Source: Candidatus Beckwithbacteria bacterium
GTDB lineage: Bacteria > Patescibacteriota > Microgenomatia > UBA1400 > CG1-02-47-37
Reading direction: 5' to 3'
NCBI GenBank assembly: GCA_026397255.1
Contig: JAPLVF010000013.1
Location: 251,532-315,531, forward strand
Length of the DNA stretch: 64,000 nucleotides
Shown: piece by piece, positions 1 through 18,235 of the stretch
Numbering within the stretch: position 1 is the stretch's first letter
Layout: every line of letters starts with the position of its first letter
The notes under the pieces: model-generated
Database searches by the model: none
Told to the model about the DNA's origin: nothing
The model's input: only the letters and a program-made list of their open reading frames with translations
Program-made: the position numbers and the translations under genes

Positions 1-579
1 TTCGCCGGTGACATCGATAATATCGCTAATGTCCGTCGGGTCAACCACTTTTTTCTCCGCTACAATATAGTTATAAGGAACATTGTTATAGTAAGCAATA
101 ATTTTATCGCCTTTTTCCAGTTTTCCTAAAAGATAGAAAACCGCATTAAACCGTTCCACATCAAAAGTCGCGTCAGTCGAATGGCCGAAAATATAAACCG
201 TACCGTTTTCTCCCGGAACCGCCGTCCCGACCGCATGGGCGACTCCACCCGCCTGTTTTAACACCGATTGGTAGGCTTTTACATCCTCGGGGTTAACATT
301 TTCCGTCACCGACACGTTGACAAAAATTTTCGGGATCACCAAACCAAACTGGGTTGACAAGGGCTTGACCACATCAGCGTTGGCCAATTGTTTAAAACCG
401 GACATTGATACCATCATGCCTGAAAAACCAACAGTTGGTTTACCGGTTGACGCGGCTTTTACTTCTTGCTGATAACGCGCTTCGGTGATGACGCTCGGAC
501 CGAAAATCCAGGCTAAAATTACCACAATTAGCCCTAAACTTAAATTAATCCCCCAAATGATTAATTTTTTATTTTTCAT
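1..579 (-). CDS. Sortase (class A/E-like transpeptidase), 3' end truncated by the window edge. The N-terminal signal-anchor is present.
   Basis: Manual minus-strand translation from ATG at 579-577 gives MKNKKLIIWGINLSLGLIVVILAWIF (TM anchor). Further on: ...GENGTVYIFGHS...FAVFYLLGKLEKGDKIIAYYNNVPYNYIVAEKKVVDPTD, matching the sortase His-loop and beta6/beta7 region. The catalytic TLxTC should lie beyond position 1. Not in the ORF track because the ORF runs off the window. Confidence 0.55.
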   Translation of the reverse strand, partial: MKNKKLIIWGINLSLGLIVVILAWIFGPSVITEARYQQEVKAASTGKPTVGFSGMMVSMSGFKQLANADVVKPLSTQFGLVIPKIFVNVSVTENVNPEDVKAYQSVLKQAGGVAHAVGTAVPGENGTVYIFGHSTDATFDVERFNAVFYLLGKLEKGDKIIAYYNNVPYNYIVAEKKVVDPTDISDIIDVTGE

Positions 580-582
580 AAA

Positions 583-1986
583 CTAAAACCCAAATAATAA
601 TTTCACTAATAGTAAAGTTGCTCCCAAACCGGCACTGCCAACGCTTAACCAAGTCGGTGCTCCGGTTGAAGGCTGGCTGGGCGGAAAATTTGGCGTTGGA
701 CTGGCTCCGTTAATACCGTTAACCGGATAGTTGCCAAAATAAAACTTATAGTTTTTGCTTTGATTCAGAGTTTGTTCTACTACCGTTCCGGTCGTATTTA
801 ACCACCCTTCCTGACCCAACTCCTGTATCTTAACTCTATCACCGATATTGACCGTGATGGTGTCTCCGGCGTCTCCATTCGGTTCAATCGTGTAGCTTTC
901 TTCTTGCCCGCCATTCACCTGATAGGTAAATTCCCAGGCCCGATTAGTCGAACCTTCCCCGGTTTCTCTAACCCCGTTTTTATTAGCATCTAAAAATTTC
1001 TCAATAACAAAAGTGGGTTGATTGGCTCCCGGCGATGGGCTGGGACTGGGACTGGAACCGGGTTCGGGTGAAGGGCTGGCGGAAATTCGTTGGTTGCCAA
1101 AATCAAAAGTATAAGTATGTCCCGCCTGGCTTAATGTTTGTGTCTGATTTTTAGGAGTGGTAATCTTCCAACCGGATTTAGTAAATTCCTCTACTTCGAC
1201 TTTGGTTCCTTTGTTCATGGTTGTCTTAGCTGATAAACCGCTGGCAGTGGCCGTATTAATCGCTTTCCAGTCGCCGTCGTTAATGCTGTATTGGAACGAC
1301 CAGGTCTTATTCGGACTGCCTTCATTAGAATCTTTGTCACCGTCGCCGTTTAAATCATTAAATTTGCGGATTTGAAAATAGGCTTTATTAGAAGATGGGG
1401 TGGGTTTATAGGAAAAAATCACTAAAAAATCATTATAGTCTGAGGCTGGCTCACCAGCCGTATCCCAATCTGACCAGCATTGAGTGGAAACAATCGGTTC
1501 ACCGTTGTCATTTACTTCCTTAACATAGGCCTCAATATTCACCGGTGGGTCTGCCAAACCGCTAACGCCGCATTGTTTTCCGTCATTAATCGGCGTTTGC
1601 CAATTAAAGTCGGGTTGGTAAACATCGTTGACTTTCGCGGAGATTTTTTCCGTTAGGCTTTCTTGAGCCTTAATATTAATTCCGGTATCTTTATAGTTGC
1701 CGGTGCTTATCTCAAAAACATTCGGAGTTTCTTGGTAAGTTAGCTCAAACTTTCTATTGGTCCAGGAGTCAAACCGCCAATAATAGATCCGGACCTCGCC
1801 GTCTTTAGGAAATTTTAACGTGGTTGGGTTAGTGCCGCTAGTTAACTCTTCCGGCTGCGCTTGGGCAATAAACGCTTCCTGCCGATTCAGACTGGATAGG
1901 TATGTCCGCATCGATAAATTTAGGCTGACTAGGCCAGTCACTACGATTACCCCGATCCACAAAAGTTTTTTCCAGGCAAACTTCAT
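583..1986 (-). CDS. Secreted or cell-surface protein with an N-terminal signal-anchor, an internal (SP)n linker (SPSPEPGSSPSPSPSPG) and a C-terminal hydrophobic anchor.
   Basis: 467-aa ORF. N-terminal TM MKFAWKKLLWIGVIVVTGLVSL, Ser/Pro-rich linker, C-terminal ...PSTGAPTWLSVGSAGLGATLLLVKLLFGF. Function unknown. Confidence 0.6.
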   Translation of the reverse strand: MKFAWKKLLWIGVIVVTGLVSLNLSMRTYLSSLNRQEAFIAQAQPEELTSGTNPTTLKFPKDGEVRIYYWRFDSWTNRKFELTYQETPNVFEISTGNYKDTGINIKAQESLTEKISAKVNDVYQPDFNWQTPINDGKQCGVSGLADPPVNIEAYVKEVNDNGEPIVSTQCWSDWDTAGEPASDYNDFLVIFSYKPTPSSNKAYFQIRKFNDLNGDGDKDSNEGSPNKTWSFQYSINDGDWKAINTATASGLSAKTTMNKGTKVEVEEFTKSGWKITTPKNQTQTLSQAGHTYTFDFGNQRISASPSPEPGSSPSPSPSPGANQPTFVIEKFLDANKNGVRETGEGSTNRAWEFTYQVNGGQEESYTIEPNGDAGDTITVNIGDRVKIQELGQEGWLNTTGTVVEQTLNQSKNYKFYFGNYPVNGINGASPTPNFPPSQPSTGAPTWLSVGSAGLGATLLLVKLLFGF

Positions 1987-2050
1987 CTTAAAATAATCCT
2001 ACACTATTTTACCAAGTTCTTCAAAAAAAGCGGCGTGATAGAATAAAATT

Positions 2051-3409: not shown

Positions 3410-5191
3410 AAAAGCTTCCTGAGAGAGATTGACCTTACCCACCCGCTTCATCCGTTTTTTGCCGCGCTTCTGACTGGCTAAAAGCTTGGCTTTGCGGCTT
3501 AAATCGGCGGCGTGGAGTTTAACCGTGACGTCTTTGCGGTAGGCTTTAATCGTTTCCCGGGCTAAAATTTTACCGCCCAAAACTACCTGGATTGGTAGTT
3601 CAAACTGCTGACGGGGAATGGCGGCTTTTAATTTTTTCGCTAATTTTAAGGCTAAGCTGACAGCCGCAGGGCGAACAGTTAAAACTGATAAGGGTTCAAC
3701 CAGCTGACGATTAAGTAAAATTTCCAGTTTAACGATGTCGCTTAAAACAAAACGGGAAAAACGCCAATCAAGGCTGGCAAAACCGGAAGAAACCGATTTT
3801 AAACGATCAAAAAAACCGCTGATTAATTCCCGGAGCGGCATAAAATAAACCAGCTTGACCTGGCTGCCAAAAAATTCCTGGGATTTCAGCTCGGCCCGAT
3901 ACTCGCGGCATAAATCCATCACCCCGCCCAGATAAGTAAGCGGGGTAAACAAAGATAAATCAATATACGGCTCCAGAGTTTGGTTGATTAACGAGGGGTC
4001 GGGAAAATCGGCCGGGCTAAGGATGGAAATAAGTTGGTGATTTTTCTTCAATTCAATCTGGTATTCAACCGACGGACTGGTAGTAATCAGGTTTAAATCA
4101 AATTCCCTTTCCAGACGCTCCTGGACGATCTCGGCGTGCAACAGCCCCTGAAAACCGATTTTAAAACCGCTGCCTAAAACCGCCGAGTTGACGGGATTGT
4201 AAGTAATGCTGGAGTCGGTTAAATGAAATTTTTCCAAAGAGGTTTTTAATTTAATAAAGTCTTGGTTGTCAATTGGATAAAAATCCATAAAGACAACCGG
4301 TAAGGGTTCCTGATATCCCGGCAAAGCGGAAACGGCCGAGCCTGATTCAACAATCGTGTCGCCGACGCGGCAAAGAGAAATATCTTTCAGGCCGGTGGCC
4401 AGATAGCCAACCTCGCCACAGGTTAATTGCTGCGTCGGTTTTAGGCTAGGAGAAAAGTAACCGATTTCCTGAGTTTTAAAGACGGTCGCGTTAGAAAAAA
4501 ATTTAAGCTGGGTAGAGGCAGTAATTTGGCCGTTGACTAAACGGACGCAAGCAATAACGCCGTGATGGGGATGATAAAAAGAGTTAAAAACTAAAGCTTG
4601 CAGGGGGCTGTCCTCCTTCGCTGAAGCTACGGCGGGCGAAGGAATCCGATCAATAACAGCTTTAAGCAATTCCGGTACGCCAGCGCCTGTTTTGGCAGAC
4701 ACTAATAAAATCTCCGAGGCTTTAAAACCGAATGAATCCTGTAATTCCTGCTTAACCCGATCAATTTCGGCATTGGCTAGGTCAATTTTATTAATCACCG
4801 GAATTAATTCCAAATGACTAGCCATGGCTAAATTGGCATTAGCCATTGTCTGGGCCTGAATTCCCTGGGTAGCGTCAACTAATAAAATGGCGCCTTCGCA
4901 AGCATTGAGCGACCGGGAAACTTCGTAGGAAAAATCAACGTGACCGGGGGTATCGATCAAATTTAGAATATAGGAGTTAGCATTTAGCAAATAGCGCATG
5001 CGGACAGGGGCGAGTTTAATGGTGATTCCCCGTTCTTTTTCAATCGGATTAGAGTCCAAGAACCGTTCCTCGAAATCTTTTTTGGCAATCGTACCGGTGG
5101 CTTGCAAAAATCGGTCGGTTAAAGTAGTTTTGCCATGATCGATATGACTGATAACGCAAAAATTTCTAATAGTTGATTGGTAGAGATTCAT
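3389..5191 (-). CDS. lepA: Elongation factor 4 (LepA).
   Basis: N-terminus VISHIDHGKTTLTDRFL (GTPase G1), DTPGHVDF, NKIDL. Length 600 aa and domain order match LepA. Confidence 0.95.
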   Translation of the reverse strand: MNLYQSTIRNFCVISHIDHGKTTLTDRFLQATGTIAKKDFEERFLDSNPIEKERGITIKLAPVRMRYLLNANSYILNLIDTPGHVDFSYEVSRSLNACEGAILLVDATQGIQAQTMANANLAMASHLELIPVINKIDLANAEIDRVKQELQDSFGFKASEILLVSAKTGAGVPELLKAVIDRIPSPAVASAKEDSPLQALVFNSFYHPHHGVIACVRLVNGQITASTQLKFFSNATVFKTQEIGYFSPSLKPTQQLTCGEVGYLATGLKDISLCRVGDTIVESGSAVSALPGYQEPLPVVFMDFYPIDNQDFIKLKTSLEKFHLTDSSITYNPVNSAVLGSGFKIGFQGLLHAEIVQERLEREFDLNLITTSPSVEYQIELKKNHQLISILSPADFPDPSLINQTLEPYIDLSLFTPLTYLGGVMDLCREYRAELKSQEFFGSQVKLVYFMPLRELISGFFDRLKSVSSGFASLDWRFSRFVLSDIVKLEILLNRQLVEPLSVLTVRPAAVSLALKLAKKLKAAIPRQQFELPIQVVLGGKILARETIKAYRKDVTVKLHAADLSRKAKLLASQKRGKKRMKRVGKVNLSQEAFLAVVRR

Positions 5192-6773
5192 CGTGAGTAA
5201 AGCGTTTAATTAAAACCGTAAAGCTATCCAGCTCTCTAATTTTTAAAATTTTGGAAAAAACTGAGTAAACCGTCAAGCCAATTAAGGTCGTGATAATCGA
5301 TAAAATAATCAAATCAAGGGTCCGGGCGGTATCAAGAATATACCGGTCAAGAACACGCAAAGGAATCCAAAGACTGAAGCCGGTTAAAATCGTCGCTAAA
5401 GACATTTTTAAAAAAGGAATAAATAATAAGTGGCGGTCAAAGCCGCCGGTCAACCGGGCGAGAAAAAATAACAACAAGGCTGCATGTAAAAAACTAGCCA
5501 GGGAAACTCCCAAGGCCAAACCTAAAACACCGAAATGAAACTGATAAATAAACAGAATACTAAAGGCAACATTGGTAAAAACGGCGGCAATAGCCAGATA
5601 TAAAGGGGTACGGGTGTTGGATAGCGCATAAAAACCGCGGACCAGAATTTGAATAGCAGATTGGGCAAAAACAGAAATAGCAAAGAGGGCAACCACTTTG
5701 CCGGTTAAAATCGTCGCCTCCCAGGGGAAAGTCCGAGCACCGAAAGCCAGACGAACGGCCGGAATTCTTAAGACCAGCAAAATCATTCCGGCCGGCAAAC
5801 TTAAATATAAAGCCTGATTAAGGGATGATAAAAGCAGGGTTTTAAATTTATCCAAAGAATCCCGGGAAACATTCTGAGACAGAGTGGGCAAGGCGGCCTG
5901 ACCGATGGTGGCCCCGAACAAACCGACCGGCAAGTTGTTTAAATTTTGAGCAAAATAAAAAATGGCTAAAGAGCCGACCGACAAAGAAGTGGCCAGAAAA
6001 ACAGCCATGGTCAGCTCAATTTGGCTGACCGCTAAAGCTAAAGTTCGGGGAAACATTAATCGGCCAATCCGTTTCACCCCGGGATGTCGAAAATCAAAAC
6101 TAAAACGATAATTAAAACCTAAGCTCTTAACTAAAGGCACCTGAATTAAAAAATGCAAAAAGGCGCCGAGAATGACGCCAAGCGCCGGACCGTAGATTCC
6201 AAACATAGGTCCCAAAACCAGAATCCCAAAAATTATTCCCAAATTATAAGCAATCGGGGAAAGGGCAGGAATTAAAAAATAATGATGCGACTGCAAGATG
6301 CCGGTTAAAAAATTAGAAACCAAAAAACAAGCTTGGGCCAGCAATAAGATACGCGTCAAGACGGTCATCAGATTAAGCTGATCGACGGAAAAATTAGGGG
6401 CAATTAAATGGCTTAAGGGCCGGGCAAAAATAAATAAAACAGCGCCTAAAATCATAAATAAGGCCAGACCGATGTTAATAACGCTGGAAGCGACATGCCA
6501 GGCTTCATGTTTTTCTTTAATTAAATAGTGGGAGAAAACCGGAATAAAGGCAGCGGAAAAAGCGCCAACGACTAAAAGCTGAAAAATCATGTCCGGCAGC
6601 CGAAAGGCGGCAAAATAAACATCCAACTGCCAAGAACTTAACGGATTAAAAAAAGCGCCGGCCAAAAATCTGTCCCGCAACAACCCCAAAATCCGGGACA
6701 AAAAAACCGCAAACATCAGAGTACTGGCGGCAGAAAGAGTGTCTGGCTGTGGCCGAAGCCAACGATTTCTCAT
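5166..6773 (-). CDS. murJ: Lipid II flippase MurJ/MviN. The start was moved to the internal ATG (MRNRW...); the track ORF extends to 6866 and overlaps the rpsT promoter.
   Basis: At least 12 predicted TM helices. N-terminal motif LSRILGLLRDRFLAGAF is typical of MurJ. The 3' end overlaps the lepA start by 26 nt. Confidence 0.8.
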   Translation of the reverse strand: MRNRWLRPQPDTLSAASTLMFAVFLSRILGLLRDRFLAGAFFNPLSSWQLDVYFAAFRLPDMIFQLLVVGAFSAAFIPVFSHYLIKEKHEAWHVASSVINIGLALFMILGAVLFIFARPLSHLIAPNFSVDQLNLMTVLTRILLLAQACFLVSNFLTGILQSHHYFLIPALSPIAYNLGIIFGILVLGPMFGIYGPALGVILGAFLHFLIQVPLVKSLGFNYRFSFDFRHPGVKRIGRLMFPRTLALAVSQIELTMAVFLATSLSVGSLAIFYFAQNLNNLPVGLFGATIGQAALPTLSQNVSRDSLDKFKTLLLSSLNQALYLSLPAGMILLVLRIPAVRLAFGARTFPWEATILTGKVVALFAISVFAQSAIQILVRGFYALSNTRTPLYLAIAAVFTNVAFSILFIYQFHFGVLGLALGVSLASFLHAALLLFFLARLTGGFDRHLLFIPFLKMSLATILTGFSLWIPLRVLDRYILDTARTLDLIILSIITTLIGLTVYSVFSKILKIRELDSFTVLIKRFTHDESLPINY

Positions 6774-6774
6774 C

Positions 6775-6803
6775 TTGACGCGAGTATAACAAAAATATAA
6801 AAT
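6775..6803 (+). promoter_or_regulatory. Sigma70-like promoter for rpsT. TTGACG at 6775-6780, a 17-nt spacer, then TAAAAT at 6798-6803. The ATG follows at 6811, so the transcript is leaderless or nearly so.
   Basis: Read directly from the sequence. Only 7 nt lie between the -10 and the ATG, and there is no Shine-Dalgarno. Confidence 0.45.
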
Positions 6804-6810
6804 CCAAACC

Positions 6811-7059
6811 ATGCCAATACTAAAATCCGCCATTAAAAAACTAAAGCAGGATAAAAAAAGAACCAAGGTGAATAAGCCTTATCGCGAAAAATACCGGTTA
6901 GCGGTAAAAACGGCCAGAATCCATCCCAGTCTAAAAACGCTAAAATTGGCGGCGGCGGCGTTGGATAAAGCGGCAAAAAAGAAAGTCATTCATAAAAATA
7001 AAGCCAATCGACTCAAGTCGAGATTGACACGACTTCTCAAAAAGACAAAAAAGAAGTAG
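6811..7059 (+). CDS. rpsT: 30S ribosomal protein S20.
   Basis: MPILKSAIKKLKQDKKRTKVNK...IHKNKANRLKSRLTRLLKK. The basic helical protein of this length and pattern matches bS20. Confidence 0.85.
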   Translation: MPILKSAIKKLKQDKKRTKVNKPYREKYRLAVKTARIHPSLKTLKLAAAALDKAAKKKVIHKNKANRLKSRLTRLLKKTKKK

Positions 7060-7068
7060 AATTAACTA

Positions 7069-8204: not shown

Positions 8205-8507
8205 ATGCTCAGCGGAGTGCAAAAATCCTGGCGCAAAGACTTATTCAGATTGTCAATAATGACATTAATTACCGTGGTCGTCTGGATCGGCTTGGCCACT
8301 TACCAAGCTTTAACCAAAAGCCAGATAAAACCGGATGTAGCCAAGGCAATTTTACCCTTGACGCCAACCCTCGACATTGACACAATGGAAAGGATTAAAC
8401 AAAAACAGGTTACTCCTAATATTGATTGGGGCAGCCTAACGCCGGTAAAGCCGGAAATTTTAGCGGTGCCCAAAGAAGCGACTGCCAGCAGCCATGCAAA
8501 CGAATAA
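8205..8507 (+). CDS. Small membrane protein, hypothetical.
   Basis: 100 aa with one TM helix (IMTLITVVVWIGLATY). The start is adjacent to the stop of the upstream gene (8204). Confidence 0.4.
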   Translation: MLSGVQKSWRKDLFRLSIMTLITVVVWIGLATYQALTKSQIKPDVAKAILPLTPTLDIDTMERIKQKQVTPNIDWGSLTPVKPEILAVPKEATASSHANE

Positions 8508-9828: not shown

Positions 9829-9836
9829 ATAAACTT

Positions 9837-11318: not shown

Positions 11319-11320
11319 CT

Positions 11321-11929
11321 ATGAAAAAAGATAATAAATGGCTATTGTGGGGACTGATTGGCTTTACGGCTATCTTGCTGATAACGGCAATAATTTTATT
11401 CCTGCAGTTAAGGAAACCAACACAGCCCTTGCCGACGCCAAAACCAGTCGCCTCACCGCAAGTTCCGGAAATAAATGTAGCGGGTACGGCTGGTGTCTGT
11501 GAGCTAAGCTTTACGGTGACAGCGTCACCTTCACCCTCACCGAGTCCGGGGACGTCACCTTCACCCTCACCGAGTCCGGGGACGTCACCTTCACCCTCAC
11601 CGAGTCCGGGGACGTCACCACAACCAAACGTTTGTTTTGACACCTGCAGCACAGATGATGAATGTAAGGTGGCTAATTCTGAGTGGAGGTGTATGACTGT
11701 GTCCGGCGATAAGCGCTGTGTTAACCCTAACTGCACGGACGAGACCGACTGTAACTGCAATATCGCTTCCTCGCCTAACCCAACAATTATCGCCTACGCT
11801 TCACCAACTCTTCCACCCCAAACCAAGGGCGGCCAGCCGGTGTTACCGCAAGCGGGTATTTCCGGACCGGCAGTTTTAGGGGTTTCAGCCGGACTGTTGC
11901 TGATGCTGGCCGGGTTGTTGTTGTTTTAA
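11321..11929 (+). CDS. Small surface protein carrying an (SPSPSPSPGT)x3 tandem-repeat linker, a Cys-rich domain and a C-terminal LPQAG plus TM anchor. The start was moved to the ATG at 11321.
   Basis: MKKDNKWLLWGLIGFTAILLITAIILF (TM). Three identical 10-aa repeats encoded by three identical 30-nt units. The protein ends VLPQAGISGPAVLGVSAGLLLMLAGLLLF. Confidence 0.6.
   Translation: MKKDNKWLLWGLIGFTAILLITAIILFLQLRKPTQPLPTPKPVASPQVPEINVAGTAGVCELSFTVTASPSPSPSPGTSPSPSPSPGTSPSPSPSPGTSPQPNVCFDTCSTDDECKVANSEWRCMTVSGDKRCVNPNCTDETDCNCNIASSPNPTIIAYASPTLPPQTKGGQPVLPQAGISGPAVLGVSAGLLLMLAGLLLF
11524..11613 (+). repeat. Three perfect tandem copies of a 30-nt unit (gtcaccttcaccctcaccgagtccggggac), in-frame within the CDS.
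   Basis: Identical 30-mers at 11524-11553, 11554-11583 and 11584-11613. They encode S-P-S-P-S-P-S-P-G-T repeats. Confidence 0.9.
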
Positions 11930-11931
11930 AT

Positions 11932-13134
11932 TCAGCGCCAGGTAGGTAACCAGAACCAATATTTTAGTAAGTTTACAGGTAGTGGTATTGCGGTATTTAA
12001 GGGGTAGAAGAAAATAAAAGTTATAATCGTTATAAATATTATAAATTTTATAATTTTGGCTGGCAGAGCGTTAACCACTTGAGCTAAAATTAAACATAAA
12101 AAGGGCAGGGCGGGCAGATAGTGATGTAAAAACATAATCCGGGGAGAAAAAACGAAAGGAAAAAAGAGAAAGAAATAACAAATCAGAAGAAATAAATTGC
12201 TGCAGAAAATTAAGGAAATTAAACCGCCCCAGAAAACTAACGGGTTGCCAAGATTATAAATATTGGCGACAGAATTTTTAAAATACTCAACATAAAACCA
12301 AACCGGCCGGATTAGAAACGGCCACTGCCAGGCAGAAGACTGATAAGAGTGAGTGGCGGTAAGGTGGGTTTGATACCAAATAATTTGCTTGTGAAGATCA
12401 AAAAAACTGGTCAAGCTGCCGCCGCGGAGAAATAACTGAGAATAAGAGAGAAAATAAATAATCACTGTAATAAGTAATATGTAAACTGTAAACAAAAATT
12501 TTTTGGGAGATCTAATCAGAAAGAAAATTAGGTAAATCGGAAAAAGCAAGACGGCAGAATGTTTGGTGGCCACGGCCAAGCCGGTAAAAATAGCAGTAAG
12601 AAAGAGATTACGATAAGGAGACGCCTTCACATGCGTAAAGGAGTCTCCTTTAATAAATCGACAAAAGAAAGTGAGGGCAAAAATAATCCAGGTAGTCACA
12701 AAAATATCATTCATGGTAATCCGCGACATCGTCAACTGAAGATTGTCAAAAGCAAAAAAAGCGGCAGCCATTAAAGCGATTTTTTTATTTTTAAATAATG
12801 TCAGGGCGAAATAATAAAGGGCGGCAATGGAGATTGTCCCAAAAAGGGCACTGGGGAATCGCCAACCGAAACTGTTATCGCCGAAAATCTTAACTGAGTT
12901 CGCTTGAATTAATTTAGCTAAAGGCGGATGAAGCCAATCATAGGCGGTATTGGGTTCGGGCGCTTTGGCAAAGGGATTATAGGCATCAAGGTTCCCCTGA
13001 CTAATCGCCCGCACGGCCGGAACATGATAAACCTCGTCGAAAACATAGGCAGCCGGGACACCCAAGCGGAAAACCCGCAGGAAAAAACTAACAACGAGCA
13101 ACAACCATAACGCTCTCGTGTAAAATGGTTTCAT
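11932..13134 (-). CDS. GT-C fold membrane glycosyltransferase, GT39/PMT-ArnT-like (protein O-mannosyltransferase family). The start is tentatively placed at MKPFY.
   Basis: A loop-1 motif YVFDEVYHVPA (DE motif) is typical of PMT/GT39. There are more than 10 TM helices. An in-frame palindromic element sits at 12615-12650. The track ORF extends to 13248. Confidence 0.6.
   Translation of the reverse strand: MKPFYTRALWLLLVVSFFLRVFRLGVPAAYVFDEVYHVPAVRAISQGNLDAYNPFAKAPEPNTAYDWLHPPLAKLIQANSVKIFGDNSFGWRFPSALFGTISIAALYYFALTLFKNKKIALMAAAFFAFDNLQLTMSRITMNDIFVTTWIIFALTFFCRFIKGDSFTHVKASPYRNLFLTAIFTGLAVATKHSAVLLFPIYLIFFLIRSPKKFLFTVYILLITVIIYFLSYSQLFLRGGSLTSFFDLHKQIIWYQTHLTATHSYQSSAWQWPFLIRPVWFYVEYFKNSVANIYNLGNPLVFWGGLISLIFCSNLFLLICYFFLFFPFVFSPRIMFLHHYLPALPFLCLILAQVVNALPAKIIKFIIFITIITFIFFYPLNTAIPLPVNLLKYWFWLPTWR
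12615..12650. repeat. Palindromic hairpin element family A, copy 1 (AAGGAGACGCCTTCACATGCGTAAAGGAGTCTCCTT), located inside the GT39-like CDS.
   Basis: Read directly from the sequence. Translated in-frame on the minus strand as KGDSFTHVKASPY. Confidence 0.85.
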
Positions 13135-14566
13135 GCTGTCTATTGTAGCAAGTTTTGTTTTTTGGCTTGGCTGGGTTGGGTTTTTTACGATTACCTGGAG
13201 CCATGTTCTGGTGAAAGAGGCAGCGGGCTGGTGGTCAAGTTGCGCCAATTGTTGGGGCGATTGGTCGGCCCACCTGGCTTATACGACCAGTTTTGCCTAC
13301 GGCCACAATTTCCCGCCACAACTGCCGATAATGGCCGGCCACAAATTCAGTTATCCGTTTCTGATCGACTGGTTGTCAGCCATACTCGTGAAATTGGGCT
13401 TGGATTTAAGATGGGCATTAATTATCCCCGGCTGGATTCTATCGTTAATTTTGATTTGGCTGATTGTCAGATTGGGGCAAAAATTAACCGGCAGCTTGGC
13501 GGTGGGCCGGTTGGCCTCATTGATTTTTTTATTTAACGGCGGCAAGAAATTTTTAAATATTGTGGTAGCCCAATTAATGCCGCAAAGAGGCTGGTTGTTG
13601 GGCATGAGTTTAGGGATAATTATTTACTTATTGTTTTGGCAGTGGCTGGAAAAAAAGCAAAAAAAATATTTATTAATTGCCGGGATAATTGCCGGCTGCC
13701 TACCCTTAATTCATTTACATTCATTGGCGGCAGTGATTTTTGTAGCCGGGTGGTTAGTAATATTTAATTTCTCCCGGCAGTGGCTGTATTTTTTCCTACC
13801 ATTGGCTTTGTTGGCCACACCCCAGATATTAAGTTTTTATTCTCTGGGATTACATTTAATTAAGTTTAACCCGCAGTGGTTAGGTTTAGACCTAGGCTTA
13901 GTGATAATTTTAGGATTGATCGGTTTTATCAAGGCGGATAAAAGACTTAAAAAATTTGTTCTGCCTTTTTGGGGATTATTTATTTTGGCTAGTTTATTTG
14001 TTTTCCAGCCATTTGATTGGGACAATACCAAGATTTTTGACCATTGGTATTTAATGCTGGCAATTTTAGCCAGCCTCGCCTTACAAAAAATGTGGCAAAA
14101 ATCCTGGTGGTTAAAAATTGGGGCAGGAATTTTGTTTGGTTTAATGATTTGGCCAGGTTTGGCGGAAACGATTAAATTTAACCAGTACCAAAAAAATAAA
14201 TATTTGTTTTTCGGTAATGAAGAGCTGGCTTTAGCCGAAGTGGGTAAAAAAAACATTCCCCCGCAGGCAGTGGTTTTAACCGCCAGTAATCATAACCATT
14301 GGCTGCCAACTTTAACCGGGAGAAAAATTGTTTTAGGTTATACCGCCTGGTTATGGTCCTATGGCGTTAATTACCAACAAAGAGAGGCAGATGTAAAATT
14401 AATGTATCAAACGGGGAGCAAATCATTGCTGGAGAAATATAAAGTTAATTATGTGTTAATCGGGCCGGAAGAACGCCGTCAATTTAGGGTAAATGAAGCT
14501 TGGTTTAACAAGAATTTTCCGGTAATTGAATTGAACAGAGAGAATAAACTTTACCAAATCAACTGA
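13133..14566 (+). CDS. Polytopic membrane protein, probably a GT-C-type glycosyltransferase. The start is ambiguous.
   Basis: 477 aa with roughly 12 TM helices and a C-terminal soluble domain. The start codon is interleaved with the divergent gene's start at 13132-13135. Confidence 0.5.
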   Translation: MLSIVASFVFWLGWVGFFTITWSHVLVKEAAGWWSSCANCWGDWSAHLAYTTSFAYGHNFPPQLPIMAGHKFSYPFLIDWLSAILVKLGLDLRWALIIPGWILSLILIWLIVRLGQKLTGSLAVGRLASLIFLFNGGKKFLNIVVAQLMPQRGWLLGMSLGIIIYLLFWQWLEKKQKKYLLIAGIIAGCLPLIHLHSLAAVIFVAGWLVIFNFSRQWLYFFLPLALLATPQILSFYSLGLHLIKFNPQWLGLDLGLVIILGLIGFIKADKRLKKFVLPFWGLFILASLFVFQPFDWDNTKIFDHWYLMLAILASLALQKMWQKSWWLKIGAGILFGLMIWPGLAETIKFNQYQKNKYLFFGNEELALAEVGKKNIPPQAVVLTASNHNHWLPTLTGRKIVLGYTAWLWSYGVNYQQREADVKLMYQTGSKSLLEKYKVNYVLIGPEERRQFRVNEAWFNKNFPVIELNRENKLYQIN

Positions 14567-14579
14567 AAACTGACAGCAG

Positions 14580-15746
14580 TTAAAGAAGATTACGCAGCAG
14601 CAGACAGTAAAAAACCGCATACTGCTGATTGTGCTGATAAAAATTTTCAATAAATTGGGTGTAAAACAAAGGGTAAACTAACTGGTCAAAAATAGCGATA
14701 AAGGCTAATAAAACAAACATTAATAAATATTTAAGCTTATTGTTTTTTTTGAACTCTAAAAACGGAAACAAAGATAAAAACCACCAAATATATTGCGGAT
14801 TAAGATTTTTGGAAAAAACCAGAAAAATTAAAGTCAGGCAAAAAATAATGGCAAAATTGAATTGTTTAAAGTAAGATCTTTTAAACCACAAGAATAAATA
14901 AAATAAACCTACCGGCAGCAACCAGATTGAATTAAAAAACGGCAGCTTTAGGCTAGTAATAAAGTTTAAGTTAATTCCCCAAACTCCATAACCACCCAAT
15001 GGGGGCGGTGGTTGATGAAATTTTAATAAAGAGGTTGCAGTTAAAAGGCTTGCAGGCACGCTTTCGATGCTGACATATTTATTTTTATGAAAGGCTAAGG
15101 TTTCAGCTATCTGTTCCCATCGCCCTCCGAAAGCAAAAAAGATTAAAACCGGTAAAATAATGGCGCCTAAATAAAATAAAATAAATTTTTTTAGTTTCGG
15201 CAGCTGATGGCGGTAAAGAAGAAATAAGTAGGGCAAAAAAATTATTGGGTAAATTTTAATACCGGTGGCCAAACCCAAAGCCAAGCCCGAAAAAGAGAGT
15301 TTCTGCTTCTGCCAAAAAATTAGGCCTAAAATTATTAAGAAAGCGGCAAAAGTATCAAAGCGAAATAAGCTGATTGGGCCGAAACATAAAATCAAGATTA
15401 AAAATTGCCATCGGCGGCGGGAAAGCAAAAAACTGATAAAAATAATTAATAAATTGAGCCAAATGACTGCTTTTAAATATAAGGCGTAGTTGAGCTTAGA
15501 CCAGCCGGAAAAAATTGCCGGAAGAAAATTATAAAAAAGAGTGGCCGGTAGCAGTTCATTGTCTTTATAGCTTCCAAAAGAATTATGTTTAAAAAAGGCG
15601 GTTAAGCGCGTATACCAAACCCAAACATCTACCTGTAAATGGGCATTCCAAAGCGGATTTTGCGACTGAAAATAAAGAGCTAGAAAAACAAGTAAGCCTA
15701 AAACTCCCAACAAAATTGATTTTTTTCTGAGTAAAATATTAAGCAT
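14580..15746 (-). CDS. Polytopic membrane protein, GT-C/GT87-like putative glycosyltransferase.
   Basis: 388 aa with about 11 TM helices. Family not resolved. Confidence 0.45.
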   Translation of the reverse strand: MLNILLRKKSILLGVLGLLVFLALYFQSQNPLWNAHLQVDVWVWYTRLTAFFKHNSFGSYKDNELLPATLFYNFLPAIFSGWSKLNYALYLKAVIWLNLLIIFISFLLSRRRWQFLILILCFGPISLFRFDTFAAFLIILGLIFWQKQKLSFSGLALGLATGIKIYPIIFLPYLFLLYRHQLPKLKKFILFYLGAIILPVLIFFAFGGRWEQIAETLAFHKNKYVSIESVPASLLTATSLLKFHQPPPPLGGYGVWGINLNFITSLKLPFFNSIWLLPVGLFYLFLWFKRSYFKQFNFAIIFCLTLIFLVFSKNLNPQYIWWFLSLFPFLEFKKNNKLKYLLMFVLLAFIAIFDQLVYPLFYTQFIENFYQHNQQYAVFYCLLLRNLL

Positions 15747-15761
15747 AACTAAAATTCTAGC

Positions 15762-17204
15762 ATGAAAAAGATTATTGTAATCGCGATTTTTATTCTAGCC
15801 TTGGGGTTGAGAGTTTATAAATTGAGTTTGAGCCCGCCGGGATTGTATGCCGATGAGGCGTCCATCGGTTACAATGCCTACTCTATCTTGAAAACTGGGA
15901 AGGATGAACATGGAGTTGCCTGGCCAATATTTTTCCAGGCCTTTGGTGATTATAAAAATCCGGTATTTATTTATTCTTTGGCGCCGCTAATCAAGCTAAA
16001 TGGTTTAAAACCAGAGACAATCCGCTTGGGAGCGGCTATCTGGGGCAGTCTGGCAATTCCCTTGTTAATGGCGGTGGCTTGGGCAGCGACGGCAAACTTT
16101 ACTTTAAGCTGTTTGGCTGGAGTAGTTTTGGCCTTAATGCCGTGGCACCTCCATTACAGCCGGCTAGGTTTTGAAGCGATTACTTTGCCAACCTTAATGC
16201 TTTTATCTTTATGGTTATTTCTTAAATGGCTAAAAAATAAAAAAATTCTCGCGGGGATCGCTTTGGCGCTAAGTTTATTTTTAATGTTTTACAGTTATAC
16301 CACTGCCCGCTTGTGGATGCCGCTATTGGGTTTGATTTTACTAATACTTTTTCGCAAACAACGGTTGAGTTTGACTAAAAAAATAGTTGTTTTTGATTCG
16401 CTGCTAATAATGTTTTTACCGCTTTTGATCTGGCTTAGACAATTTCCGGATAGTTTAACGGCACGGATGAATCAAATTGCCATTTGGGCAGATAAGCCCC
16501 CTTTGCAAAAAATGTGGCAACGTTTTTGGTCGACCTATGCCGGCCATTTTACTTTCAGCTGGCTTTTTTCCCGGGGCGACACAACCATCCGTCACTCCAG
16601 CGGCATCAGCTCAGAAATGCTGTTAAGTTTTGCCCCCTGGTTAATCATTGGTTTAATCATGCTAATAAAACAATGCCGCAAACAACCTTTTTGGCAGCTG
16701 ACCTTAATTATGATCGGCCTATTCCCGTTAGCGGCGGCTTTAACCCAAACCAGCCCGATTGCCACCAGAACTTTACAAGCGACCCCATTTTTCAGCCTGG
16801 CAATTGCTTGGGGAATAATAAAATTAAAAAAGCCGTTGTTGATTATTTTGGCCTTGATAATTATCGGGTTGGAGTTCGGCCGTTATTACCGGGATTTAAT
16901 TTATTTTTATCCAAAACGGGTGAGTCAACCGTGGGATGGTTTTGATAGCCAACTGGGCCCAGCCATTAAAACGGCTTACCAGAAAAGCCAAGAACAAAAA
17001 AAGCCATTATTTTTATCTAGTAAAATCGAGCAAGCTTATATTCAGGGTTTGTTTTTTACCCAAGCTGATCCCCGGCTCTGGCAGACAAAACATCAGACTC
17101 CATTTACGGTAGCTAAGTTTAAGGCAGTTAAAGCTGGTGAGATATGGGTGATTACCCGAGACGAATGTCCGCAAAAAGATAAAGATTATTGCGTTTTATT
17201 CTGA
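15762..17204 (+). CDS. GT-C fold glycosyltransferase, ArnT/PMT (GT39/GT83)-like.
   Basis: N-terminal loop YADEASIGYNAYSILKTGKDEHGVAWPIFF carries a DE motif and basic loop as in ArnT/PMT. About 12 TM helices and a C-terminal soluble domain. Confidence 0.65.
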   Translation: MKKIIVIAIFILALGLRVYKLSLSPPGLYADEASIGYNAYSILKTGKDEHGVAWPIFFQAFGDYKNPVFIYSLAPLIKLNGLKPETIRLGAAIWGSLAIPLLMAVAWAATANFTLSCLAGVVLALMPWHLHYSRLGFEAITLPTLMLLSLWLFLKWLKNKKILAGIALALSLFLMFYSYTTARLWMPLLGLILLILFRKQRLSLTKKIVVFDSLLIMFLPLLIWLRQFPDSLTARMNQIAIWADKPPLQKMWQRFWSTYAGHFTFSWLFSRGDTTIRHSSGISSEMLLSFAPWLIIGLIMLIKQCRKQPFWQLTLIMIGLFPLAAALTQTSPIATRTLQATPFFSLAIAWGIIKLKKPLLIILALIIIGLEFGRYYRDLIYFYPKRVSQPWDGFDSQLGPAIKTAYQKSQEQKKPLFLSSKIEQAYIQGLFFTQADPRLWQTKHQTPFTVAKFKAVKAGEIWVITRDECPQKDKDYCVLF

Positions 17205-18235
17205 TAAAGAAGTTCGGAAACGTAAGAATAGACAGACTGCCAGTTATTGTTAACCGGCAACAAGACCCACTGGCCGTAAAGACTACTGGGCGGATTGTAT
17301 AAAAGAGCGGGAATATCTTCGCTGCTGCTGCCTTGGTCAACGATCCCGGTGCGCAGACTGGAAGATTTAACTCTTAAAACCAGCTTAACTAAATCAATAT
17401 AGCTAGAGGTAGAAAGATCGGTTTTGACAGCATGCTTAAATTCTTGGTAAAGAGCTTTAAGCTTGGCAGGATTTAATAAAACGGAGGGTGATAACACTTT
17501 GTCTTTGAAGGCCAATAAAACCAATTGCTGGCGTTGGGCCCGGGCATAATCACTCCCTTCCTCTCCCTGGGAATAGCGGGAACGGACATATTTTAACGCC
17601 AGAGAACCATCCATGTGCTGTTGGCCGGGAGAAAAGGTTAAGGCTTCGTAGCGGCTGGATTCGGGTTCGGCGGTTTCTTTGCCCGGAACCGGATACTGCG
17701 GGTCGGTAAAACCATGAAGAACATTAAGATCAATTCCGCCCACAATATCGATGGCTCTTTCAAAACCGGAGAAATCCAGAAGAACAGCGTAATGGACCGG
17801 CTGGTTAATAATCTCGGAAACAGCACTTTTAGCCAAAACCAGGCCGCCGCCCAACTGCTTGGCTTCACCAAATTCGTAGGCAGTATTAATTTTAGCGGAT
17901 AGGGATTCTATCCAAATATCGCGCGGCAAAGAAATAAGAACCGTATCCGAGTGAGTTAAATTAACAGAAATAAACATAATACTGTCGGTTAAGTCGGCGC
18001 CGGGATGATCGCCGCCGCCAATACCCAGAAGCAAAAAGTTGGTGCGGCCGCGAAAAGAATTAAGCTGAGTAATGGCCGGATTAATCAGAGAAAAAATTTT
18101 AGTCAGCGGCTTGGTTTTCGGGATAAACCAGATAAAAAATAGAATGATTAAACTAATAACCGCTAAATAAAAAACCGGCCGGAGAAAGAGAATAAATTGG
18201 TAAGTACGACGTTTTAATTTAGGCACTAAAGACAT
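17186..18235 (-). CDS. LytR-CpsA-Psr (LCP) family glycopolymer phosphotransferase.
   Basis: N-terminal TM, then LLLGIGGGDHPGADLTDSIMFISVNL...LISLPRDIW... The LCP core motif is present. Confidence 0.8.
   Translation of the reverse strand: MSLVPKLKRRTYQFILFLRPVFYLAVISLIILFFIWFIPKTKPLTKIFSLINPAITQLNSFRGRTNFLLLGIGGGDHPGADLTDSIMFISVNLTHSDTVLISLPRDIWIESLSAKINTAYEFGEAKQLGGGLVLAKSAVSEIINQPVHYAVLLDFSGFERAIDIVGGIDLNVLHGFTDPQYPVPGKETAEPESSRYEALTFSPGQQHMDGSLALKYVRSRYSQGEEGSDYARAQRQQLVLLAFKDKVLSPSVLLNPAKLKALYQEFKHAVKTDLSTSSYIDLVKLVLRVKSSSLRTGIVDQGSSSEDIPALLYNPPSSLYGQWVLLPVNNNWQSVYSYVSELLYQNKTQ

Follow-up and report, generated by a model that had tools for sequence, protein, structure and literature searches.

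Does the stretch examined here encode one dedicated pathway for glycosylating and anchoring surface proteins? The host, Candidatus Beckwithbacteria (Microgenomatia/CPR), is a tiny, uncultured bacterium from groundwater. The window is the whole stretch of 64,000 nucleotides (64 kb), and an earlier, sequence-only reading had proposed such a pathway for its first 18 kb. Every element listed in that reading was recovered, by Pfam search and translation, at or near the place given for it (Table 1). The 18-kb region makes better sense as three envelope modules lying side by side than as a single dedicated pathway. Module A is a sortase and substrate pair (1-1986) whose position is lineage-specific. 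Module B is an operon (7069-11929) encoding PilN-like, PilO-like, sm100, Big13, p493 and p202 proteins, and module C comprises four GT-C enzymes (GT39/PMT, GTC2, GT87 and GTC4) and an LCP enzyme. The sortase and the LCP wall-ligase gene probably lie outside any single dedicated pathway. A surface-glycoprotein system, made up of the PMT and three membrane GT-Cs adjoining the genes for S/T/P-stalk proteins, is plausible but unproven.

Table 1. Features of the window, with strand and basis of assignment
Feature	Position	Strand	Basis
Sortase, N-terminal 193 aa (TM anchor and most of catalytic domain)	1..579	-	Pfam Sortase E 2e-15
p467, secreted, two repeated beta-domains and (SP)n linker	583..1986	-	translation
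MurJ lipid II flippase	5166..6866	-	Pfam MurJ E 1e-74; equivalent place in relatives
Ribosomal protein S20	6811..7059	+	directly upstream of PilN; equivalent ORF in L002-L006 is PF01649
PilN-like bitopic membrane protein	7069..7617	+	Pfam PilN 36.7 bits vs 22.8; one TM helix
PilO-like bitopic membrane protein	7614..8204	+	Pfam PilO 41.5 bits vs 22; one TM helix
sm100, small bitopic membrane protein	8205..8507	+	conserved after PilO
Big13 protein	8494..9828	+	Pfam Big_13 36.6 bits, Pur_ac_phosph_N 32.2 bits
p493	9837..11318	+	translation, homologues, TM prediction
p202	11321..11929	+	translation, homologues
PMT, GT39/PMT-type GT-C, 400 aa, without MIR domain	11932..13134	-	Pfam PMT, PMT_4TMC and PMT_2 (ORF 11932-13248)
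GTC2, GT-C-fold protein	13133..14566	+	weak Pfam PMT_2, E about 2e-3, below cutoff
GT87-family GT-C, PimE-like	14580..15746	-	Pfam GT87 35 bits vs cutoff 25; homologues
GTC4, GT-C-like	15762..17204	+	Pfam PMT_2 E 1.7e-3, below cutoff
LCP-family phosphotransferase, N-terminal TM and extracytoplasmic LytR_cpsA_psr	17186..18235	-	Pfam E 1.4e-28
Two FemAB-family peptidyltransferase genes	19979..21825	+	Pfam FemAB E 1.5e-29 and 1.5e-9
w495, GT2 with DAD and QxxRW motifs	29942-31429	+	matches Glyco_trans_2_3
w474, GT-C-like, EPYWYGDE	31449-32873	+	Pfam
w127	32870-33253	+	array member
WecA/MraY-like enzyme	33257-34351	+	NCBIfam WecA E 9e-20
DPPR-synthase-like UbiA	34297-35223	+	NCBIfam decaprenyl-phosphate phosphoribosyltransferase 207.6 bits, under cutoff 234

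The PMT gene, its GT-C neighbours and the LCP enzyme

The PMT start was placed at 13134, as in NCBI protein P0001, and not at 13248. Residues D33, E34, D143, R332 and F335 are invariant among 15 CPR homologues, and the DE and Rx2F motifs align with the DE and R..F of fungal PMTs; the same residue classes are essential in M. tuberculosis PMT (PMC12331936). Against the PDB, the PMT-family profile matched only PMTs and TMEM260, with no ArnT, Aft or Emb. The AF2 model (pLDDT 83) gave TM-scores of 0.73-0.78 to Pmt4/Pmt1/Pmt2 vs 0.52-0.62 to other GT-C enzymes. The stretch best conserved in common with eukaryotic PMTs is the C-terminus of EL4, which in the M. tuberculosis enzyme recognises Pro-rich peptides (PMC12331936). 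The domain architecture, the invariant catalytic residues and the predicted fold all identify the product as a genuine GT39-type enzyme and not an ArnT-type lipid A transferase, in agreement with the family first suggested for it. Its score against the NCBIfam actinobacterial Pmt equivalog model was 57.6 bits (cutoff 800). No Ppm1-type GT2 donor synthase was visible in the 64-kb window.

A DE motif had been attributed to two of the GT-C enzymes; it is present as FDEVYH in PMT and as LYADEAS (PMT_2/ArnT-like) in loop 1 of GTC4. GTC2, whose start overlaps that of PMT back to back, has WGD43WSAH47 in loop 1 in place of the DE motif and a C-terminal soluble domain with G-W-L-W-[ST]-Y-G. It is a remote PMT paralogue from a large unannotated GT-C family, with a fold equally close to AftA, AftD, ArnT and to oligosaccharyltransferases. 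It is also the most constant PMT neighbour (paired in 31 of 79 loci), and PMT-GTC2 pairs occur outside CPR as well, in loci of 66% GC. The GT87 gene, two genes from PMT, encodes a conserved HLQVDVW in loop 1; a 10-nt indel at 14582/14583 makes the window protein shorter by 13 aa than its counterpart from a second assembly. In Actinobacteria, the O-mannose on proteins is extended by PimE/GT87 (PMC12757957). GTC4, which also carries a C-terminal soluble domain, gave no sequence match in the PDB and has only 2 homologues in the 87 loci. None of the window GT-Cs matched an Aft or Emb family by sequence.

The LCP enzyme scored 88.8 bits against the NCBIfam LCP domain (cutoff 62.3), and in 22 of 69 loci its gene is no more than 5.5 kb from PMT. 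Its nearest solved structures are TagV/TagU/TagT, MsrR, BrpA and Cps2A, and LcpA was absent from its 17 sequence matches at E<=1e-3. The suggestion of an LcpA-type role was not borne out: the enzyme most resembles the ligases of wall teichoic acid and capsule, with no specific tie to LcpA-type protein glycosylation.

Stalk proteins, C-terminal signals and gene order

S20, found in 22 loci by a custom HMM, is possibly the first gene of the operon B transcription unit; a promoter-like site ahead of it (6775-6803) was not statistically significant. The PilN-like protein carries the N-terminal EINLLP motif, through which PilN binds PilM, and its gene shares 4 nt with that of PilO. sm100 had no match in Pfam or NCBIfam and has homologues at the equivalent position in 23 loci. 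Big13 consists of a conserved N-terminal TM, fn3-like and Big_13 Ig-like domains and an S/T/P-rich stalk, and ends in ..SMPATGSGIPHPG followed by a TM and KIKNIV. Across 23 homologues this terminus is conserved as a 12-residue block, xP[AS]T[EDG]SG[VI]Px[STPA]G, with a TM and K/R tail. p493 has one TM, a cytoplasmic N-terminal tail rich in Pro, (SP)n linkers, 27 Cys and a conserved C-terminus, ..QCRxC..CTxWGQAN. In p202 an N-terminal TM precedes three SPSPSPSPGT repeats (a perfect 30-bp x 3.2 tandem repeat at 11523-11619), a Cys-rich module and an S/P stalk. It ends ..VLPQAG with the TM at the very C-terminus, and about 27 homologues conserve [EQ]LP[EQKVSM][AS]G and a TM without a charged tail.

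S/T/P-rich runs or a C-terminal signal were found in 4 of the 58 ORFs of the window, all within the first 12 kb. All four proteins previously credited with (SP)n linkers and/or C-terminal signals are present, but p493 has no anchor signal and the MPATG of Big13 is the first half of the longer block. Two of the three extracytoplasmic operon B proteins (Big13 and p202) have a conserved [LVI]PxxG-TM signal at the C-terminus, and nearly all homologues of these two have S/T/P-rich stalks.

The fourth protein, p467, had no Pfam match and ends ..PPSQPSTGAPTW followed by a TM. The adjacent sortase gene leaves the window before the catalytic TLXTC Cys, and its product scored far under all NCBIfam sortase-class cutoffs (best class D, 35 bits vs 140). 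The nearest sortase relatives (57% identity) directly follow a QPxTG substrate gene; in loci L092 and L093 the upstream genes end ..SQPDTGVPTW and ..EQPDTGTPTW, respectively, each followed by a TM. Because this arrangement is kept, the sortase next to p467 probably has that protein, with its QPSTG signal, as its dedicated substrate; it would cut p467 and join it to the peptidoglycan cross-bridge. The FemAB pair, which adjoins UvrD-LCP in relatives as part of a conserved block, would make the cross-bridge required as the sortase nucleophile.

Gene order was compared in 87 related loci; the counts refer to 60 loci for operon order, 78 with scoreable PMT, 79 for GTC2 and 69 for LCP. Of 60 related Patescibacteria loci, 21 have PilN-PilO-sm100-Big13 downstream of PMT, even where PMT identity falls to about 36%. 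Among the 78 loci, ORFs that are S/T/P-rich or carry a C-terminal signal are nearly confined to positions +1 to +6 downstream of PMT; the S/T/P-rich ones number 35 at +1 to +4, one at +5 and one at -2, with none at the remaining positions from -9 to +9. The neighbourhood conservation named earlier as a check holds for PMT and the stalk proteins, which are syntenic in many relatives, but not for the sortase, its substrate and GH39, in whose place relatives carry HrcA-GrpE-DnaK; none of the 87 loci has a sortase gene within 10 kb of PMT. Where the PilN/O operon is missing, PMT has no S/T/P-rich gene beside it, and the association is thus without independent replication, except for the distant locus L030, where the adjacency is differently arranged (PMT>PilM>PilN>PilO). 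S20, LepA, UvrD, SpoU and MurJ also hold a conserved order in these loci, which makes synteny alone weak evidence for common function; the order may be a frozen backbone.

Weighing the explanations

The region is best explained by O-glycosylation of the stalks encoded nearby, a reading held tentatively and at slightly less than even odds. From donor sugar and acceptors through each enzymatic step to the coupling between modules, we infer the following course. Polyprenyl-phosphate sugars would be made in the cytoplasm and flipped. At the outer membrane face PMT would put the first sugar on Ser/Thr in the Pro-rich stalks carried by Sec-exported proteins, the operon B products among them, and GT87, possibly with GTC2 and GTC4, would lengthen or diversify the glycan. 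The stalk proteins would remain membrane-tethered or become wall-linked through the C-terminal signal. LCP would most likely act in its canonical role, ligating a polyprenyl-PP-linked glycopolymer to peptidoglycan, with the array at 29.9-35.2 kb as candidate source of that polymer.

This reading is favoured because of the PMT identity, the GT87 gene nearby, the operon/PMT synteny, the L030 adjacency, the PMT-GTC2 pairing and the fit of the stalks as acceptors. As regards the last, bacterial PMT favours Pro-rich Ser/Thr peptides (PMC12331936), which is consistent with the linkers being substrates, as had been proposed. The Pgf GT-C genes of Streptococcus mutans lie in one cluster with those of wall-anchored adhesins bearing S/T-rich regions (PMC12041528), and extra density is seen on Ser356 of PamA, a pilin of a CPR bacterium in culture (bioRxiv 10.64898/2026.03.03.709456). 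Against it stand the lack of a visible donor synthase, the Pmt equivalog score far under cutoff, and the convergence of PMT with operon B (the PMT and p202 stop codons are 2 nt apart), hence no co-transcription. Segments rich in S/T/P ahead of a C-terminal anchor also commonly serve just to span the wall, and they need not be glycosylated. A further objection is the coupling of PMT to UbiA-like and WecA-like genes in 17 species. The w495-w474-(w127)-WecA-like-UbiA array ends in PMT in 17-18 other Patescibacteria species, with stop and start codons that abut or overlap (translational coupling), an arrangement that suggests lipid-linked glycan or wall-polymer chemistry just as readily.

Assembly of a wall glycopolymer or lipoglycan is accordingly a serious rival, if a less likely one. 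The GT-Cs, possibly including the PMT-like enzyme, would build or decorate a secondary wall polymer from polyprenyl-phosphate sugars, and the stalk proteins would be unrelated cargo. By analogy with mycobacterial arabinogalactan or teichoic-acid glycosylation, the WecA-like enzyme would prime, the QxxRW GT2 polymerise, the UbiA-like enzyme supply a pentose donor and LCP ligate the product to peptidoglycan. The PMT-ending arrays and their equivalent at 29942-35223 argue for it, as do the UbiA score near the decaprenyl-phosphate phosphoribosyltransferase cutoff, the w495 motifs, the TagT/U/V, MsrR and Cps2A likeness of LCP, the grouping of LCP, FemAB and MurJ in one block, and the GTC2 fold. The vicinity of UbiA showed no genes for DprE1/DprE2 epimerases, however, and the PMT itself speaks against it: its profile and fold are clearly nearer PMTs than lipid- or glycan-directed GT-Cs, and the peptide-recognising EL4 C-terminus is the part best conserved between it and eukaryotic PMTs. 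To our knowledge, all characterised GT39 members act on proteins.

Less probable again is the absence of any functional coupling, with PMT a general O-glycosyltransferase for many exported proteins, like its actinobacterial counterparts, and its position an inherited order in small, slowly rearranging genomes. The retained order of the housekeeping genes, the convergence with operon B, the non-syntenic sortase module and the location of PMT elsewhere in Curtiss-, Davies- and Pace-bacteria are consistent with this, and we know of no clustering of actinobacterial pmt with substrate genes. The genes that separate PMT from Big13, and PMT from LCP, nevertheless vary while the flanks remain together, and the independent PMT-PilMNO adjacency of L030 and the PMT-GTC2 pairing beyond CPR also speak against it. 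It is very improbable that PMT, with GTC2, modifies pilins or platform-associated proteins and that operon B is an accessory of a type IV pilus machine in a single-membrane, walled cell. The PilN and PilO matches above Pfam cutoffs, the EINLLP motif and the L030 order would fit; PilMNO and type IV pili are widespread in CPR bacteria (PMC6744442), and there is precedent in the Pseudomonas GT-C enzyme TfpW, which adds D-arabinofuranose to pilins (bioRxiv 10.1101/2020.04.19.049825). The 64-kb window, however, holds no PilM, PilB, PilC, PilT, PilD or prepilin gene, and no operon B protein has a prepilin G/FxxxE signal.

Comparison with known systems

Stalk O-glycosylation resembles actinobacterial O-mannosylation (Ppm1, Pmt/GT39, PimE/GT87) in its GT39 without MIR, the DE and Rx2[F/Y] motifs, the GT87 nearby, a single-membrane walled cell and Pro-rich Ser/Thr acceptor regions. 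It differs in a PMT of only 400 aa (57.6 vs 800 bits), in the absence of Ppm1 from the window, and in the pairing of PMT with GTC2 and its clustering with candidate substrates and PilN/O. As PMT is operon-joined to the DPPR-synthase-like UbiA in other CPR classes, the donor may not be mannose. In S. mutans Pgf (PgfS, PgfE, PgfM1/M2; Cnm/CnaB/CbpA) and streptococcal GtrB/PgtC2, GT-Cs likewise O-glycosylate extracytoplasmic S/T-rich disordered regions, but these are YfhO-family enzymes, not GT39, with a GT-A donor synthase and epimerase in-cluster, neither of which was seen here.

Actinomyces oris LcpA-GspA-SrtA also unites LCP, sortase and C-terminally signalled surface proteins in one region, whereas the window LCP is nearest the TagT/U/V type, the sortase is non-syntenic with LCP in relatives, and no protein resembling GspA was found. 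P. aeruginosa TfpW is a GT-C that acts in the periplasm to O-glycosylate a pilus protein, and its donor pathway begins with a DPPR-synthase homologue; the genomic links here are PMT/UbiA-like and PMT/PilN/O. TfpW is not GT39, however, and here no pilin or DprE1/E2 genes were found and the organism is without an outer membrane. Mycobacterial arabinogalactan synthesis (WecA, GlfT, UbiA/DPPR synthase, Aft/Emb, Lcp1) is matched by WecA-like and DPPR-synthase-like UbiA enzymes, several GT-Cs and LCP in one 35-kb stretch, but the GT2 is of the QxxRW synthase type and not GlfT, with neither DprE1/E2 nor an Aft/Emb sequence match. The CPR Pam pili (PamA/B, membrane-anchored chaperones, PamR), compared by description, are encoded next to ATP synthase genes without PilN/O, PMT or sortase-like signals, but points of likeness are a CPR-specific surface structure of Ig-like proteins, C-terminal TM anchoring of accessories and, in the Pam pili, a post-translational modification on a Ser.

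Gene content and the GT-C proteins

Every gene that the sequence-only reading had named was recovered by ORF listing and Pfam and NCBIfam scans. Of the window's 58 ORFs, only those for the four proteins p467, Big13, p493 and p202 encode S/T/P-rich runs or a C-terminal signal. The scanned window ORFs contained no Ppm1, DprE1/E2, PilM/B/C or exosortase-type genes, and Pfam scans of the 64 kb found no Ppm1-like GT2 donor synthase. Promoter and terminator scans of the window were not better than shuffled controls. The gene of the GT39-type GT-C protein (PMT) is convergent with the operon headed by PilN and has no intergenic DNA at either end (13133-13134; 11927-11934), its start codon overlapping that of GTC2 back-to-back by 2 nt and its stop codon lying 2 nt from that of p202. 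Promoters and terminators flanking PMT must therefore sit inside coding sequence.

Positions of features in the window
Feature	Position	Strand	Source
Sortase, cut by window edge	1-579	-	ORF listing, Pfam and NCBIfam scans
p467, 467-aa secreted protein, C-terminus QPSTG and TM	583-1986	-	ORF listing
GH39, LepA, MurJ, further genes of the region			ORF listing, Pfam and NCBIfam scans
S20	6811-7059		
PilN	7069-7617		
PilO	7614-8204		
sm100, 100-aa bitopic protein	8205-8507		
Big13, fn3/Big_13 protein, C-terminus MPATGSGIPHPG, TM and KIKNIV	8494-9828		
p493, 493 aa, Cys-rich, (SP)n linkers, without C-terminal signal	9837-11318		
p493 N-terminal Pro-rich tail	9837-10070		
p202, 202 aa, three SPSPSPSPGT repeats, C-terminus LPQAG and TM	11321-11929		
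30-bp tandem repeat in p202	11523-11619		
Four polytopic proteins	11932-17204		
PMT	11932-13134	-	
GTC2	13133-14566	+	
GT87	14580-15746	-	
GTC4	15762-17204	+	
LCP enzyme	17186-18235	-	
UvrD, two FemAB genes, SpoU, directly outside the region of the sequence-only reading			
AddA/UvrD-type helicase	22912-25875		
MetRS-TatD-w495-w474-w127-WecA-like-UbiA array	27671-35223	+	
w495	29942-31429	+	
UbiA	34297-35223	+	
tRNA	36678-36748		Rfam
GT4-family ORF	36671-37933		
Epimerase/dehydratase-DUF4012 fusion	54796-57915		
YidC	59028-59816		
DnaA	60590-62002		

The true start of PMT was M39 of a longer ORF. The 400-aa product was 100% identical to the NCBI entry 'glycosyltransferase family 39 protein [Candidatus Beckwithbacteria bacterium]' and contained PF02366 (67.3 bits, cutoff 22.7) followed by PF16192/PMT_4TMC (78.2 bits, cutoff 32.4), a pair recorded for every full-length PMT homologue among the matches listed. 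The identical NCBI entry assigns the window to a Microgenomatia (CPR/Patescibacteria) genome. Alignment of 15 CPR homologues gave invariant D33, E34, D143, R332 and F335 and the invariant blocks FDEVYH, HPP..K, SR..MND and PR..F..HY. PDB matches of the PMT-family profile were protein O-mannosyltransferases only: C. thermophilum Pmt4 (E 1.4e-31), yeast Pmt1 (8e-30), Pmt4 (3e-20) and Pmt2 (2e-16), the weakest quoted match being human TMEM260 (6e-7). The profile alignment placed vfDEvYh of PMT on fungal vfDEVHF, mnD on llD and sPRilFlyHYLP on gRqlFlhHYLP. In M. tuberculosis PMT, which favours Pro-rich Ser/Thr peptides, D74, D176, R441 and Y444 are essential (PMC12331936); with numbering carried over via the fungal alignment, the DE pair, second Asp and R..F of the window PMT would belong to the same residue classes.

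The AlphaFold model of PMT (pLDDT 83) was compared with solved structures using Foldseek and was nearest to Pmt4 (9i5k_A, E 3e-11, TM 0.78) and to ScPmt4, Pmt1 and Pmt2 (TM 0.73-0.76), with AglB, STT3 and ArnT (TM 0.52-0.62) below the solved PMTs. By profile matches and fold, one of the four GT-C proteins of the sequence-only reading is thus of PMT type and not of the lipid-glycan ArnT type. The actinobacterial Pmt equivalog (NCBIfam NF058602) matched residues 11-154 only, at 57.6 bits against a cutoff of 800. On architecture, invariant residues, PDB profile and predicted fold, and with the equivalog cutoff missed, PMT was classed as a true, if distant, GT39-type enzyme, below orthologue level relative to actinobacterial Pmt. 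To our knowledge all characterised GT39 members glycosylate proteins, the bacterial ones preferring Pro-rich Ser/Thr stretches.

GTC2 contained no Pfam domain, and its homologues, all named 'hypothetical', form a family of ∼2,500 sequence clusters (E<=1e-30). Profile-profile comparison identified GTC2 and PMT as remote relatives (prob 94.7%, E 5.7e-8) and aligned invariant D43 and H47 of GTC2 on the D and H of PMT FDEVYH. Assignment of GTC2 to the GT66 oligosaccharyltransferases (STT3/PglB/AglB) was rejected, an STT3 domain and C-terminal WWDYG motif not being found in it; a profile of its C-terminal domain gave only chance PDB matches (TIM and VDAC). Single-sequence and profile searches of PDB sequences with GTC2, GTC4 and GT87 returned nothing useful. 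GT87 matched PF09594 (35 bits, cutoff 25) and its loop-1 Asp lies in a motif, HL[EQ][VI]D[VT][WY], kept in five homologues; GTC4 carries a loop-1 DE motif and a sub-threshold PMT_2 match. Another assembly from this population, identical over 11.3 kb apart from 10 extra nt at 14582/14583, encodes a GT87 of 401 aa; the window copy (388 aa) stops 13 aa earlier, and the difference reflects either misassembly or variation within the population.

Gene order in relatives and the second glyco-array

Relatives were collected by PMT-homologue look-ups and by scanning a single genome for each species. The scan gave 80 loci, all of them Patescibacteria MAGs to judge by gene content and record titles, several titles being wrong. 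HMMs of the window proteins served to annotate the loci, and families were called with first-round HMMs and best-family assignment because models for GTC2 and GTC4 strayed into PMT once a second round had been run. The recurrent order (arrowheads give direction) was FemAB < UvrD < LCP > [GTC2/GT87] PMT > < p202 < [p493] < Big13 < sm100 < PilO < PilN < S20, then MurJ > LepA >. PilN-PilO-sm100-Big13 lay within 8 kb downstream of PMT in 21/60 loci with enough flank, GTC2 directly adjoined PMT in 31/79, and LCP was <=5.5 kb from PMT in 22/69.

Given this order and these counts, the core of what the sequence-only reading had drawn as one locus cannot be called non-syntenic; the sortase, its substrate p467 and GH39 fall outside the conserved block. 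Relatives carry HrcA-GrpE-DnaK after LepA in their place, and no sortase was found within 10 kb of PMT in any locus analysed. S20, LepA, UvrD and SpoU keep the same order too, which makes gene order by itself a poor guide to function. A PMT of 566-572 aa is followed 10 nt on by a GTC2 homologue of 685-695 aa in two non-CPR metagenomic loci of high GC content (66%; L089, 6273-10088; L090, 4290-8058), whose source names suggest Dormibacterota. In a related Beckwithbacteria genome (L002, 1-1984) the AddA/UvrD-type helicase contains an intein (PF14890); the window copy gave no intein match.

A second arrangement was found in other Patescibacteria classes (17-18 species), with MetRS, TatD, w495, w474, (w127), WecA/MraY-like, UbiA and PMT in one co-directional array (loci L028, L035, L045, L048, L049, L053, L055, L058, L061, L065, L067, L069, L071, L072, L075, L079, L081 and L082). 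PMT is the last gene, and the UbiA stop abuts or overlaps its start. The window holds the same array without PMT, and a rearrangement has separated the two in the Beckwithbacteria genome. Identity to the Paceibacteria-type homologues was 55-58% for w495 vs 35-40% for PMT. The highly conserved w495 is a GT2 protein whose DAD and QxxRW motifs are those expected of processive membrane GT2 synthases. With w474, in which EPYWYGDE is invariant, the GT-C-like proteins number five. UbiA, which carries an NDxxDxxxD motif, matched decaprenyl-phosphate phosphoribosyltransferase (NF008977) over its full length at 207.6 bits (cutoff 234, E 2.7e-61). It is a candidate polyprenyl-phosphoribose synthase of mycobacterial type encoded by a CPR genome, with no DprE1/E2 seen nearby.

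Elsewhere in the window, a tRNA found by Rfam (52 bits) and absent from ARAGORN output overlaps the annotated TTG start of a GT4-family ORF, which therefore probably starts further downstream. A 1039-aa protein fuses an NAD-dependent sugar epimerase/dehydratase to DUF4012, a family reported to be overrepresented in the envelope gene clusters of CPR and Gram-positive bacteria (PMC6744442). YidC and DnaA lie at the far end and cumulative GC skew climbs across the window; the replication origin may be a few tens of kb away.

Stalked proteins, C-terminal signals and sortase

The C-terminal block of Big13 in 23 homologues was x-P-[AS]-T-[EDG]-S-G-[VI]-P-x-[STPA]-G, followed by ∼5 residues, a TM helix and a K/R tail. 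In ∼27 homologues p202 ended with [EQ]-L-P-x-[AS]-G and a TM helix that closes the protein. An S/T/P-rich stalk directly preceded the signal in almost all homologues of both. Compared with the LPXTG type, motif and TM are kept and Big13 retains the K/R tail, with E, D or S often following Thr; in p202 Ala replaces Thr and the basic tail is absent. For neither protein does any relative have a sortase nearby. No NCBIfam match to known sorting domains was obtained for any of the C-terminal signals. The candidate sorting-signal peptides of the locus are QPSTGAP, LPQAGIS and SMPATGSGIPHPG.

In the loci analysed, ORFs encoding S/T/P stalks were almost confined to positions +1 to +6 from PMT. Loci without the PilN/O operon had no S/T/P-rich neighbours of PMT. 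The association thus lacks independent replication; it is real but confined to one conserved block. The SPSPSPSPGT units of p202 are specified by 3.2 tandem copies of a perfect 30-bp repeat (100% identity), and the very different length of (SP)n runs among its homologues makes stalk length look evolutionarily labile. In p493 a predicted cytoplasmic Pro-rich tail of ∼60 aa, its character kept in homologues, precedes a single TM helix, and 27 Cys imply extracytoplasmic disulfide formation.

The sortase gene in the window covers domain positions 1-91/125, with the TLXTC Cys part beyond the edge, and reached no NCBIfam class cutoff. The adjoining p467 ends in an LPXTG-type signal with Q replacing L (..QPSTGAPTW, TM, one Lys in the tail). 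Each of the two closest sortase relatives (57% identity) is encoded immediately downstream of a gene whose product ends ..QPDTG.PTW, TM and K, so that QP[DS]TG.PTW with TM and K is common to all three proteins. On this recurrence p467 and its sortase are classed as a putative pair of enzyme and dedicated substrate that uses a QPxTG motif. Nearly all Microgenomates carry sortases (PMC6744442).

Readings of the locus

We tentatively favour, at a little short of an even chance, O-glycosylation of the stalks of the operon-encoded and other exported proteins, on the basis of the GT39-type enzyme, the Pro-rich Ser/Thr stretches in the adjoining operon, the nearby GT87 and precedents. The presence of the GT39-type enzyme is the strongest single fact. 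The GT87 family includes PimE, the elongator of O-mannose on mycobacterial proteins (PMC12757957), and the nearby GT87 would fit this known initiator/elongator pair. In S. mutans the Pgf cluster places GT-C genes alongside wall-anchored adhesins with S/T-rich regions (PMC12041528). A further precedent is a modified Ser reported on the pilin of a CPR bacterium (bioRxiv 10.64898/2026.03.03.709456). Service of the GT-C proteins to a wall-linked or lipid-linked glycopolymer is somewhat unlikely. It draws on the coupling of PMT to UbiA-like and WecA-like enzymes, on LCP, FemAB and MurJ as neighbours, and on LCP itself (PF03816, 100.4 bits vs 24.6; TIGR00350, 88.8 bits vs 62.3; one N-terminal TM before an extracytoplasmic domain), whose nearest solved relatives are wall-polymer ligases of the TagT/U/V type. 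We know of no sequence feature that separates LcpA-type protein glycosylation from peptidoglycan ligation in LCP enzymes. A purely historical gene order, in a block that also holds S20 and LepA, is judged less probable again.

A pilus-linked role is very unlikely. PilN and PilO domains were both above Pfam cutoffs, each protein being bitopic with one TM, and PilM, PilB/C and prepilins were found neither in the 64-kb window nor in syntenic loci. The operon proteins were rejected as prepilins, none having a G/FxxxE signal. PilM adjoined PMT only in a distant locus (L030, 6930-10382), where PMT > PilM > PilN > PilO run in one direction, a second, independent PMT-PilMNO adjacency. In that locus a 1118-aa secreted, Cys- and S/T/P-rich protein precedes PMT, and a Pup-ligase gene lies on the same contig. 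The Pam pilus system was judged an unlikely counterpart on gene context, which differs from that of the operon, with an ATP synthase neighbourhood and no PilN/O, PMT or sortase-type signals.

The single 'display pathway' of the sequence-only reading, with sortase, LCP and PMT acting on the same substrates, has the weakest support of its claims. A broader extension of stalk O-glycosylation, improbable as a whole, is a protein glycosylation system of the CPR's own. It would combine a minimal GT39 enzyme with GTC2 as a previously unrecognised GT-C partner of OST-like fold and AglB-like C-terminal domain, a polyprenyl-phosphate donor of pentose, made by the DPPR-synthase-like UbiA, instead of mannose, and PilN/PilO-like membrane proteins as a scaffold organising glycosylation and display of the operon's signalled proteins, the acceptors being stalked proteins or pilus components. 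In short, arabinan/riban-type chemistry would be performed on proteins by a reduced-genome episymbiont.

In the literature searched we found no account of PMT and GTC2 as a conserved pair, of the association of that pair with an operon that starts with PilN/O and encodes stalked proteins with C-terminal signals, or of the PMT-UbiA operon, and no paper pairing Patescibacteria with O-mannosyltransferase or Candidate Phyla Radiation with LytR-CpsA-Psr. The surface of CPR/Patescibacteria makes contact with host cells and its chemistry is almost unknown. If stalk O-glycosylation holds, the Big13, p493 and p202 families would be the first concrete CPR surface-glycoprotein candidates, together with their modifying enzymes, and a large unannotated GT-C family (∼2,500 clusters) would be a PMT partner in at least two phyla. 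GT-C protein O-glycosylation is already known in single-membrane bacteria, and GT39 annotations on CPR genomes already exist. On the stalk O-glycosylation reading the locus would add a eukaryote-like O-mannosyltransferase tied to polyprenyl-phosphoribose chemistry, which is otherwise known from mycobacteria.
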